From Prorocentrum cordatum (Eukaryota), in contig CAUYUJ010000065.1 in NCBI GenBank assembly GCA_963575745.1, positions 62,001-118,803 of the forward strand: DNA of 56,803 bases. The letters run 5' to 3'. The notes beneath the pieces are model-generated. The model worked only from the letters and a program-made list of their open reading frames with translations, was not told where the DNA came from and did no database searches. Below, in pieces: positions 9,950-16,037 of the stretch. A program made the position numbers and the translations under genes. Every line of letters begins with the position of its first letter. Position 1 is the stretch's first letter.

Positions 9950-9971
9950 ACCGTAGCCATTTTGGCTCAAG
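9950..9971 (+). other. Complete dinoflagellate spliced-leader (DinoSL) sequence integrated in genomic DNA
   Basis: ACCGTAGCCATTTTGGCTCAAG is an exact match to the DCCGTAGCCATTTTGGCTCAAG consensus. It is followed by GTCC.../TCCGTAGC, not obviously by an SL-RNA intron, and leads into LINE sequence. Confidence 0.95.
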
Positions 9972-10113
9972 TCCGTAGCGGTGGCTTAGAGGACGAGAGT
10001 TTTTGGCAGGGGGGGTAAGCGGCCTCCTCAGTTACCTGGCGCAGTATTGGGGTTCCCCCACGCTTACCATACATCCTTACGACGGTTTCTCTTTTCTCAA
10101 GCACGGTTGGATC

Positions 10114-11215
10114 ATGGTTCCTTCTCTCTCTAAGCCTGCTGGCGGACGGAAATGCCCCAAATGTGGCTGTGTACGGAACCTACAACACTGGTCGTGGTGC
10201 AAGCACTGCTACGCACCATGGCAGGGGGTTGGTTCATGGTCCCCAGACAAATCTACGAAGAACTCCAAGTGTAATGGCGGCAACGCGGTGGACACCCTGT
10301 TCGGCACCGCCAACACAAACTCGCCCTTCAAAACTGACGGCCGCACGGAAGAGCTGGGTGAGGAAGATTTGGTGCATTTGGTTGCAATCTACAAGAAGGC
10401 AGGCCAACTGGAAGATATCAACACATACCAAGGCCAGCTGGACAAGCTATGAGCCCAACTCTACCCTGCCGCAATGGGCCCAAACGGAGAAGCTCGATAA
10501 AGCCTACAAGCAGATCCAGCACTTGGAAAGGCAGCTCAATCACCAGACCGAGTCCTAATACAAGGTTGCATTGCAGTTGTCTTACCACGTTGGCCAGATC
10601 AAGAAGCTGTCGGATGATCTTGAAGAACAAGAACGGGTATACAAAGAAGCCACACAGGACCTCCATGCAGGAGTAGCAGGACCGCATCATCAGGATAAGC
10701 ACGCTGCCCCATCTGCCGCTTCTTTGGAAGGGATTATGGCAGGCAAGGTGGGGTTCTTGGGTACCAACCCAGGCGAGCTGTTCGGGCTCAATGATTACGT
10801 TGACCTTACCCCAGAAGACACAGCGGAAGCAGAGAAACGCCTCAATCACCCCAAGCAGATATTTGCTGAGCAGGCTAGGACCATGCTCGGCGCGGTCAAA
10901 GATAGAGCAGAGGCCTTCAAAGGCGAGCACGAAACTCAAACAGAGAGATCCAATAATAAGCGCAAGTAGGAGGGGCCAGGGGAAGGTACATCAAATACTG
11001 GAGGTGCTGACCCAGCATCAAGCGCACCTGCAACAGGAGCACAAGGACGACCCGCAGCAGCCCCAGTCCCGTGGGCAAGTGCATCTCCAGCGAGAACTAG
11101 GACGGCTGAGGTACTACAGGCCCCAGGCGTCTCCATGCCGAACCACCCGTTCGACAAGGGCAAGGGCGAGGGCAAGGGCGGCAGGGGCTCATCGACTTCA
11201 CCGCCGAGGGGGTAA
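10114..11215 (+). pseudogene. LINE ORF1 (RanBP2-like zinc finger + coiled coil), frameshifted with internal stops
   Basis: MVPSLSKPAGGRK-CPKC-x4-N-x6-CKHC. Helical/coiled-coil segments (EKLDKAYKQIQHLERQL, IKKLSDDLEEQERVYKE) are spread over frames, followed by a low-complexity KGKGEGKGG tail ending at TAA 11213-11215. Confidence 0.65.
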
Positions 11216-14300: not shown

Positions 14301-15962
14301 GTGCAAAACATTGGTTTAGAGAAAGCAAGGGGCCATCAGCGACCTCCTCCTCTGGTGTTGGGAGGTTGGGTGGACGGCCCTGGGTCCTACCTCCTTCCTC
14401 GACCTCGAAGGGGTGGCCCTTGATGTTTTGAAGGTGGCCCTTGCTTTCATAGCCGAGCGTTTTTGACTTGCAGTATAAAGGATGTCGAACACAGGAAGTA
14501 GTGAAAGCAGTCTGCCACGCCATTGAGGACCCAAGCAGTGTTTTGATTGCCGAACAGGGGCTCTGGTGGGAGGCGGCTGCGAAGGCCCTCTCGTGCAAGC
14601 ATGATTTGGAACCTAAAGAGGTAGTGGCTGCTAGACAGGCGTATGGAGGAGCCACCCCGACGGCTGTGAAGCTGAGGTCCTGGGGCTACCCTCTCGCGCC
14701 TGAATGCAAATTCGGATGTGGGGTCCCCGATGCGGCTTTTCATCGGATCTGGGTTTGCCCCCGCGGCGCCGAACAGCGCGCATAATTTTTTTCGGAGTCC
14801 ACGGTGCAACAGGCACCGGAGACAGGAGGGCGCAAATTGTTGTTTACGAGAGGCTGGATGGCGCGCCATGAAGCCACGCTACCCTCCCAGGACTGGCATG
14901 CCACGTTCTACCAGGAATGCCAGAAGGTCGAACCATTCGCCTTCGCCCCTGGCGACAAACTTTATAGCGATGGTTCCTGCCTGAGGCCGAACATGGGGTG
15001 CCTGGCGAGAGCGGGGCGGGGGGTTGCTTCGATTGACGCCCAGGGGAACCTAATTAAAGGAATATATGGGCATGTGCCCAAGTTGTTTGGCCAGAGCAGC
15101 AGGGTAGGCGAGCAGATCGGGGTCATGATGGCCCACCTGCACATCGACAGCGAAGATAACGTGGGCCCCAGGTCCGCCCTCGGGGTTGACTTTGCGGCCC
15201 TCCTGAGGGCCCAGGGGTCGCCAGACACTGTGCTGGCGGCTAAGTGTGACGCTGCGCATTTCTGGCGCGAGGTAGCCGCAAATCTCGAAGTTGGTGAATG
15301 GGTGACCTTCCACAAAGTTAAGGCGCATCTTGACGAGACCTCTGCAACGACAGAGGCGGAAAAATGGGCATCCTGGGAAATAAGGCTGCTGACTGGCTGG
15401 CTGGCCAGGGCGCTCGTTCTCATGACTTCAGCCCCGATTTTTCCGATACCGTATTGCGTTCAGTTAAACAATATCGAGAATTATTCCTGGGAGTAGGGAA
15501 AGTCCTTGCCCTATGCCCCCCCCCGCTGACCTGTTCGGTGTGCCTGAGAAGGGATTTGTGGGCCCCCGCGTGAAGAGGCCTCCGATTGCCCCACACATCC
15601 CTCACTGGCACATAGATCATTGGCGATGCTCTGTATGTCTGAGATCGGTCTCGCCGCTCACAAAGACCCCATGCATAGGCCTCAACCCTTCCCTCGTGGA
15701 GGTTCCGAAGGAACCTGGCCATTGTGGACACGCCCTTCAGCTGGCGTGCGTGGTTGAGTCTGGGTTCCCTGTTTTGTTCTGTTCCCGTTGTGGAAAATTC
15801 GGGACCCAGAAGGCCTTAAAGCTGAGGTCAAAGTGTGAGCCTAGCAGGAGTAAAGAGAAGCGTGCCCTCCTTGCTGGCCGGCTACCCTCTACCACTTGTC
15901 GAATTCATCCCGTTCAACAGGTCAGCGGCTCGGCGTTGGGGGAGTTTTGTCCTCGACTGTAG
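11340..15962 (+). pseudogene. LINE ORF2: AP endonuclease, reverse transcriptase, CCHC finger, RNase H; multiple frameshifts and stops
   Basis: APE: ILTING, VQEH, GVCILV, IGGDWN, TIDFYL, DSHRPV. RT: GGRRPLG, LLQFYENV, GVVAGSASA, LHIDDLS (YxDD position). Finger: CKFGCGVPDAAFHRIWVC. RNase H: LYSDGS, SSRVGE, KVKAH, GNKAADWLA. Confidence 0.88.
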
Positions 15963-16037
15963 CTGTTTTTCTGGGCCAGTGCCCCAGGTGTAGTTGCACA
16001 GTGTGTGACTTCGCCTCTATGTACCCACAGTACCCAC

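Follow-up and report, generated by a model that had tools for sequence, protein, structure and literature searches.

A near-complete LINE of Prorocentrum cordatum with an intact dinoflagellate spliced leader at its 5′ end

Results

A spliced leader adjoins the head of a LINE

The DNA analysed is a stretch of 56,803 bases from Prorocentrum cordatum (assembly GCA_963575745.1, contig CAUYUJ010000065.1, positions 62,001 to 118,803 of the forward strand), referred to as the window. From 9950 to about 16037 it contains a near-complete long interspersed nuclear element (LINE) of ~6.1 kb, of the type with an APE endonuclease, a reverse transcriptase (RT) and an RNase H. Its first 22 nt (9950-9971, + strand, first base A) are an exact copy of the dinoflagellate spliced leader (DinoSL; ACCGTAGCCATTTTGGCTCAAG), as had been stated in an initial annotation made from the letters alone. 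This is the sole DinoSL match within the window when up to 3 mismatches are allowed, and dinucleotide-preserving shuffles of the window gave a match in 0 of 100 cases. The next best leader match elsewhere in the window, found with a looser scan, had 5 mismatches, and no other leader or leader relic was present. The leader adjoins the head of the element directly, with no spacer, and a microsatellite lies on its other side. The features of the element and of its flanks are collected in Table 1.

An SL RNA gene at 9950 was considered and rejected. The introns of such genes begin with GU or GC (PMC6616646, in the excerpt from section 3.3) and the gene is given as ...CTCAAG-GTACAC... (PMC12584245, excerpt from section 7), whereas in the window the bases following the CTCAAG of the leader are TCCG instead of the GT or GC of an intron start.

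Table 1. Positions of the leader, the LINE and the adjoining repeats in the window.
Feature	Position	Strand	Basis
(GGA)n microsatellite, upstream flank	9828-9944	.	TRF period 3, 39 copies, 91% matches
ACAGG, putative target-site duplication of 5 bp, 5′ copy	9945-9949	+	ACAGG again at 16036-16040
DinoSL, 22 nt	9950-9971	+	exact match; motif as quoted in the excerpts of PMC7245778
Worn full-length second leader TCCGTAGC-GG-TGGCTTAGAG, start of the head	9972-9992	+	alignment to the leader
Rest of the conserved head, with TTTTTGGC and GCGGCC	9993-10031	+	identity with L001
Remainder of the 5′ untranslated region, no ATG	10032-10113	+	first ATG after the leader is at 10114
ORF1a, 112 aa, CPxCGC-x9-CKxC zinc knuckle	10114-10452	+	translation; knuckle common to L001
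ORF1b-like, charged, heptad-like (coiled-coil-like) stretch, other frame	10439-10969	+	translation; internal stop 10556
APE-type endonuclease domain, ORF2	11322-11858	+	tblastn frame 2: P0033 57-205, P0031 645-831, P0126 96-258
ORF2 linker after APE, shifted frame	11870-12151	+	tblastn frame 1: P0033 234-306, P0031 836-931; phmmer
Reverse transcriptase region, stops 13222 and 13237	12334-14139	+	tblastn frame 3; phmmer
RNase H-like region, stop 14783	14531-15520	+	tblastn frame 1; alignment to relatives
Cys-rich C-terminal domain, ORF2	15585-15914	+	tblastn frame 2: P0033 1493-1572, P0031 2095-2177, P0126 1609-1724
3′ tail, GTACCCACA x2 + G, no poly(A)	16021-16039	+	read directly
(AGG)n, downstream flank, one microsatellite with the upstream (GGA)n	16040-16128	.	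TRF 16038-16128; phase check

A distant relative shares the head and carries leader remnants

A scan of metagenomes with the pattern of the leader/head junction returned a single contig of 3,137 nt (Ga0307402_10007650, here L001). It starts with TCAAG, followed by CCATTTTGGCTCAAG and by TCCGTAGCGGTGGCT..., that is, with the end of a leader, a canonical 15-nt relic and the head common to both elements. The 15-nt form of the relic is the one described for recycled transcripts (excerpts of PMC6616646, section 4.5, and PMC12014239, section 3.1). Since the contig begins inside the leader, it would fit a transcript. Behind the head, L001 has an ORF1a (168-560) whose zinc knuckle is shared with the window (9/19 aa, 47%, E 0.002), a separate 251-aa coiled-coil-like open reading frame (ORF; 696-1451) and an APE domain with its frame open to the contig end; its ORFs are without stops over 3.1 kb. 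The first ATG after the leader opens ORF1a in both elements (10114 in the window, 168 in L001). The two are distant in protein, with an identity of 25-32% in the APE domain.

At the nucleotide level the sole match between them is the head (blastn, 80.5% over 82 nt, E 1.8e-14). In blocks of 15 columns, 15/15 positions agree at the head start, followed by 7/15 (9987-10001) and then by 12/15 and 10/15 within 10002-10031, around TTTTTGGC and GCGGCC; beyond 10031 the agreement falls to 4/15. The head start itself resembles the leader. Aligned to it, 9972-9992 matches at 8/8 positions, has GG replacing CATTT and then matches TGGCT at 5/5, and the head of L001 keeps TGGCTC. The 21 nt after the leader thus look like an older, decayed full-length leader. 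Where a retrocopy would have its relic, the window has this worn leader-like 21-mer of full length, and the canonical 15-nt relic is found in L001.

Because the head is far better conserved than the coding sequence, it is probably functional. It could serve as an acceptor or in the definition of the 5′ end, as a core promoter, or in RNA recognition. A consensus fold computed from the two sequences was weak (−13.25 kcal/mol, 1 of 19 pairs compensatory). Scans with the head pattern hit 13 viral and 7 prokaryote loci, all of which (20/20) were chance matches, lacking a leader in front and a head behind. Scans of viral contigs guided by single proteins found no relatives.

The LINE is identified through its homologues

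As judged from sequence comparison, the identity of the element as a LINE rests on homologues and not on direct Pfam matches. A Pfam search with 11 ORF pieces gave nothing at E<=0.01, and relaxing the limit to E<=10 added only an Exo_endo_phos match below threshold (E 0.0066, 16.7 bits vs a cutoff of 24.5); neither RT nor RNase H was detected by direct Pfam search of the ORF pieces. The 412-aa open piece at 10677-11915 was compared with 1.84 billion representatives, and 398 proteins were matched at E<=1e-3, 45 of them at E<=1e-10, with all matches falling in its C-terminal half. Out of 150 listed proteins, 15 long ones were chosen for a Pfam scan (E<=0.001), which showed RVT_1 in 9, Exo_endo_phos in 9, RNase_H in 3, zf-RVT in 3 and no family in 2.

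By tblastn the pieces of ORF2 are collinear on three relatives, with four frame changes, and they map in order onto APE/RT/RNase H relatives of 1,669-2,210 aa. The window pieces were also compared with the 150 relatives by phmmer, whose E-values hold for that small database. The RT read-through piece (P0001) matches 16 of the 150 (best P0033, E 9e-40), its alignments covering the RVT_1 regions of the relatives; the piece after the RT matches 7 and the Cys-rich end 2. The RNase H-like region aligns in or next to the Pfam RNase_H stretches of the relatives P0045 (match 1518-1768, RNase_H at 1643-1791), P0126 (match 1259-1527, RNase_H at 1395-1543) and P0132. Among proteins of 370-1180 aa, no homologues of the RT part were found at E<=1e-3.

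By way of the relatives, both the APE endonuclease and the downstream RT of an APE-type LINE are thus found. The initial annotation had described a complete ORF1/ORF2 LINE; the element is near-complete, and Pfam alone yields only the sub-threshold Exo_endo_phos. No Pfam family was found for ORF1a, and ‘coiled-coil-like’ is a reading of the sequence by eye, not the output of a prediction tool.

The closest short relatives of the APE piece (query 11178-11677), P0003 and P0004, show 65-68% identity and are labelled as Pyramimonas sp. (green alga) transcriptome in EukProt, which may be due to contamination or mislabelling.

The copy is dead and belongs to a multi-copy family

ORF2 shows four frame changes, and internal stops lie at 10556, 13222, 13237 and 14783. 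The copy is dead, and its decay is real but moderate. Part of the lesions may stem from faulty assembly or from variation among copies, because single-base indels set contigs of the sequencing run X1 apart from the window at 14149, and also at 13171 and 14305-14335, in or near the zones of frame change; at least one frame change, at about 14149, is missing in an X1 contig. The initial annotation had set an intact leader against heavily decayed ORFs. With about 8 lesions in 6 kb, a stretch of 22 nt should by a rough estimate have stayed unchanged or nearly so, and an intact leader beside such decay is unremarkable and the contrast carries little weight.

X1 is the sole DNA run listed for the element and contains 0.38 of its words; the run search listed no RNA sequencing run matching the element. 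In X1, 239 contig pieces cover all 30 bins of the element, 46 of them at >=99% identity, 27 at 95-99%, 49 at 90-95% and 117 below 90%. Given this number and grading, the family is multi-copy in that organism, with members of differing age. Up to 9994, two of the X1 contigs match the window; they then differ, ending in ...GGGATTCGCGG, which resembles the L001 head; they look like the heads of another subfamily. Run X3 contributed 55 pieces, which fall into just 3 bins (those of the leader and of a stretch of low complexity, 11155-11188), and run X2 gave no pieces matching the element. No second copy was found in the window by blastn.

One microsatellite encloses leader and LINE

The upstream (GGA)n is separated from the leader by AACAGG. 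ACAGG is present at both junctions, and no longer direct match exists there. In the empty site reconstructed by taking out the element plus one ACAGG, the 13 and 14 GGA units to either side keep a single phase. A single insertion enclosing the leader, with a 5-bp duplication, fits these observations, which lend it weak support. The phases would agree by chance in one case out of three, and this limits the weight of the phase test. Since the tail runs into the repeat, the 3′ end of the element can be placed only to within a few bases (16035-16039); the end at 16037 given by the initial annotation lies within this range, and the merging of the tail with the (AGG)n prevents a sharper assignment. 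The end of the element consists of GTACCCACA x2 + G and lacks the poly(A) of a DinoSL-tagged retrocopy. No cDNA-like sequence of another gene was seen after it.

The surroundings of the element are rich in long, strand-asymmetric trinucleotide arrays (4280-9702 and 16304-19952), including a (TGA)n of ~4.4 kb (4721-9155) as well as (GAG)n, (GTG)n and (AAT)n. In these regions the G+C content goes down to 24% and the GC skew is strong. The window also contains a gap of 100 N (26101-26200).

Other features of the window and of the scans

A 575-aa frame on the strand of the LINE, open off the window start (2-1726, +), may belong to an upstream host gene; Pfam gave it just one match, a weak one (Tweety, E 0.001, below cutoff). 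Long ORFs cluster again at 38911-43322 (+), where another retroelement may lie. This second cluster includes a gag-like CCHC zinc knuckle (39612-40409, Pfam zf-CCHC, E 2.2e-7) and a 580-aa ORF with no Pfam family (41066-42805).

The leader scan of IMG/VR returned, among others, a contig (L068, 5319 nt) that starts exactly with DinoSL at base 1 of its minus strand, followed by a 788-aa ORF with RdRP_1 (E 4.9e-7); it is a leader-headed, RNA-virus-like sequence that may be compared with endogenous dinoRNAV (excerpts of PMC10235124). The stretches L002-L120, many of them filed in giant-virus (‘GVMAG’) bins, range from about 16 to 26% in G+C. Their exact DinoSL sites number 136 when counted once each, some in arrays with a spacing of 50 nt (e.g. 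L025 at 8001, 8051 and 8101). They look like AT-rich DNA of a leader-using eukaryote rather than of a virus.

Discussion

Origin of the leader and a proposed cycle

As in a retrocopy, the copied unit opens precisely with a DinoSL encoded in the DNA. The leader abuts the head, no SL intron follows it, it shares the (GGA)n flanks with the LINE, and a leader end plus a relic stand on the same head in L001; the leader is therefore supported as part of the retrotransposed unit. In our best reading, the window contains a dead full-length LINE that arose by reverse transcription of a mature LINE mRNA capped with the leader and was integrated into (GGA)n. Copying of a trans-spliced LINE RNA right up to the first base, as the initial annotation had proposed, is well supported by position, flanks and L001, and we regard it as very probable. 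Moreover, the two 5′ ends show that one conserved head received leader-derived sequence more than once, in deeply diverged elements. Leader capping thus recurs in the lineage, as L001, though distant in protein, bears leader remnants on the common head.

The cycle that we propose, and to which as a whole we give somewhat better than even chances, would run as follows. A parent copy would be transcribed from upstream of its own 5′ end and the transcript would be SL-trans-spliced like any dinoflagellate mRNA. The capped RNA would be translated from the first ATG, that of ORF1a, and copied to its first base by the machinery of the element, whereby the leader turns into DNA. In the next round, the AG sites of this DNA-encoded leader might themselves serve as acceptors. 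Use of the terminal AG (CTCAAG|T) would swap the old leader for a new one and restore the 5′ end, giving the state seen in the window; use of the internal AG (CCGTAG|CC) would leave a 15-nt relic, giving the state of L001. The older leader within the head would be full-length because the terminal AG was used, if the acceptor was chosen in this way. The conserved head may help to define the 5′ end. That trans-splicing takes the place of a promoter of the element's own is plausible; in the version put forward by the initial annotation, it might cut an element lacking a promoter out of read-through or intronic transcripts of the host.

As a tentative extension, the encoded leader and the ~60-nt head (the worn leader plus TTTTTGGC...GCGGCC) might form a portable 5′-end cassette by which the element is re-capped, promoter-free, in each generation. 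Any transcript reading in would then be trans-spliced at the AG of the encoded leader, and the cassette would have been kept by lineages with about 27% APE identity; this we consider possible rather than probable. If it were true, the machinery that copies leader-capped RNA to the first base would be the long-sought engine of dinoflagellate mRNA recycling.

Several observations weigh against the cycle and against the insertion on which it builds. The candidate target-site duplication has no more than 5 bp and overlaps the tail repeat, which itself contains ACAG. The flank is purine-rich (GGA)n on the sense strand, with an AG every 3 nt and no pyrimidine tract, and so does not single out the AG of the leader as acceptor. 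L001 is the only relative with a 5′ end in the comparison, and it may have been assembled from DNA or from RNA. The head contains TTTTTGG, which could equally be the TTT(T/G) core-promoter motif of Song et al. From the source genome, the comparison covers the 5′ end of this one copy, with its TCCGTAGCGG junction. Finally, leader-headed LINEs are not seen wherever the leader occurs, because at the genomic DinoSL sites of IMG/VR (119 stretches, 136 unique sites) similarity to LINE ORF2 was found in 0/133 cases downstream and 0/130 upstream (E 1e-2), in contigs of about 20% G+C that represent another lineage.

Alternative explanations

The alternative that survives best takes the leader as an incidental tag. 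The mRNA of the LINE would be capped like any other message and sometimes copied back, in cis or in trans, while the masters make their RNA otherwise and leader-headed copies arise as by-products. Since trans-splicing affects nearly all mRNAs of dinoflagellates (excerpts of PMC7245778 and PMC12014239), a leader is the default on a LINE mRNA; the copy in the window is dead, with four frame changes and four internal stops; and only two leader-bearing heads, those of the window and of L001, have been seen. On the other hand, leader-derived sequence stands on one head in two elements with 25-32% aa identity in APE, the head common to both is itself a worn leader, and the ORFs of L001 are without stops over 3.1 kb. 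From the common head and the leader remnants in two distant elements it follows that leader-headed RNAs founded lineages more than once, and we hold the incidental tag to be rather unlikely.

An internal core promoter was also considered, in which a TTT(T/G) motif in the encoded leader or in TTTTTGGC starts transcription and trans-splicing at a downstream AG follows. Song et al. propose such a promoter role for DinoSL in retrogenes, with conserved TTT(T/G) motifs (PMC5585692 section 11), and TTTTTGGC lies in a head block whose conservation (12/15) is among the highest. However, an RNA begun at the motif or beyond it would lack what lies upstream, whereas the leader/head junction falls at one base in both elements and L001 keeps a relic upstream of the head; this requires an RNA that began upstream of the encoded leader. 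This makes such a promoter improbable.

In a template-switch chimera, the enzyme would jump, as reverse transcription ends, from the 5′ end of the LINE RNA to a leader-bearing RNA. U6-L1 chimeric retrocopies in mammals are explained by template switching, and the process would likewise join foreign sequence to the very 5′ end of an element of full length; no result speaks for it here. Instead of a whole small RNA or a piece of variable length, the 5′ part is exactly the 22-nt exon, with neither the SL-RNA intron (GT/GC...) nor a stretch of another mRNA, and the junction type recurs on the head of L001 in the form expected from AG splicing. We therefore regard a chimera as very improbable.

Non-LTR elements that reside in SL RNA genes and encode a restriction-like endonuclease, such as NeSL-1, SLACS, CZAR and CRE, are found in nematodes and trypanosomatids, but the corresponding view that the leader of the window stems from its neighbourhood (an SL RNA gene, an adjacent retrocopy or a LINE specific for SL genes) is close to refuted, as there is no intron start after the leader, (GGA)n stands on both sides with no SL-gene or other cDNA sequence past the 3′ end, the endonuclease is APE-type, and the window has no further leader or relic (next best 5 mismatches). 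An element specific for SL genes was also rejected as a candidate in its own right, on account of the TCCG after the leader, the (AGG)n after the 3′ end and the APE-type domain. The initial annotation had itself named an SL-RNA gene and a chance fusion with a separate retrocopy as other possible sources; both were looked at and are unlikely in view of TCCG, the common flanks and L001.

Significance

Leader remnants mark more than 20% of the genes of dinoflagellates (excerpts of PMC11453091), and DinoSL relics are well known as marks of retro-copied genes (excerpts of PMC7245778, PMC12014239, PMC6616646, PMC8045281 and PMC5585692 section 11). Published accounts regard the reverse transcriptase behind these retrocopies as unknown and favour Ty1/copia (PMC6050394 section 7; PMC5585692 section 11). 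A leader-headed full-length LINE implies that the target-primed copying typical of LINEs handles leader-capped RNA to the first base, and LINEs thereby become a concrete candidate for the engine of retroposition. The nearest published statement that we found, in the excerpts of Song et al. 2017 (PMC5585692), is an enrichment of the gene ontology term ‘RNA-dependent DNA replication’ among leader-tagged retrogenes, which these authors take as a hint that retrotransposons drive retroposition. A statement that a LINE begins with DinoSL was found neither in those excerpts nor in searches of openly accessible full texts. DinoSL-tagged retrocopies are already known; the finding matters for the conserved leader-derived head and for naming LINEs as a candidate engine. 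The head suggests a possible route by which a retrotransposon uses trans-splicing instead of a promoter, the opposite of Pr77 in L1Tc. In addition, the insertion into a GGA microsatellite may hint at a target preference.

Comparison with known systems

With NeSL-1, SLACS, CZAR and CRE the element shares the joining of a non-LTR retrotransposon to SL sequence. Those elements lie in SL RNA genes and have a restriction-like endonuclease, whereas here the site is (GGA)n, there is no SL intron and the endonuclease is APE-type.

Recycled cDNAs of dinoflagellates that carry DinoSL relics were reportedly described by Slamovits and Keeling in 2008 (ref. 32 of PMC7245778). In the excerpts of PMC5585692 and PMC12014239 such ‘recycled processed cDNAs’ have a DNA-encoded leader at the 5′ end, as does the element, and a worn older leader behind it, which in the element would be the 21-mer, and L001 matches their arrangement of canonical DinoSL + CCATTTTGGCTCAAG. 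They differ in that a host gene is copied, whereas here it is the retrotransposon itself, and without poly(A). Their relic is neutral, whereas the older leader here is full-length and conserved between distant elements.

LINEs of the SymbioLINE type from Symbiodiniaceae (de Mendoza et al. 2018, excerpts of PMC5890265) combine Exo_endo_phos, RVT_1 and RNase_H and have target-site duplications, conserved 5′ and 3′ untranslated regions and no poly(A), an organization that the element described here resembles with its RNase H-like region and its candidate target-site duplication. Compared by description only, their ORF1 is a DNMT, whereas here a zinc knuckle and a coiled-coil-like ORF are found (PMC5890265, excerpts). 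The parts of that description covered here mention no 5′ spliced leader.

The L1Tc/ingi elements of trypanosomatids are likewise APE-type LINEs in a host with SL trans-splicing and have a short 5′ head, Pr77, that is conserved among diverged elements (excerpts of PMC1874656 and PMC8190864). There, however, Pr77 is an internal promoter and the unspliced transcripts bypass the leader (PMC1874656, excerpts), whereas in the Prorocentrum element the leader lies within the copied unit.

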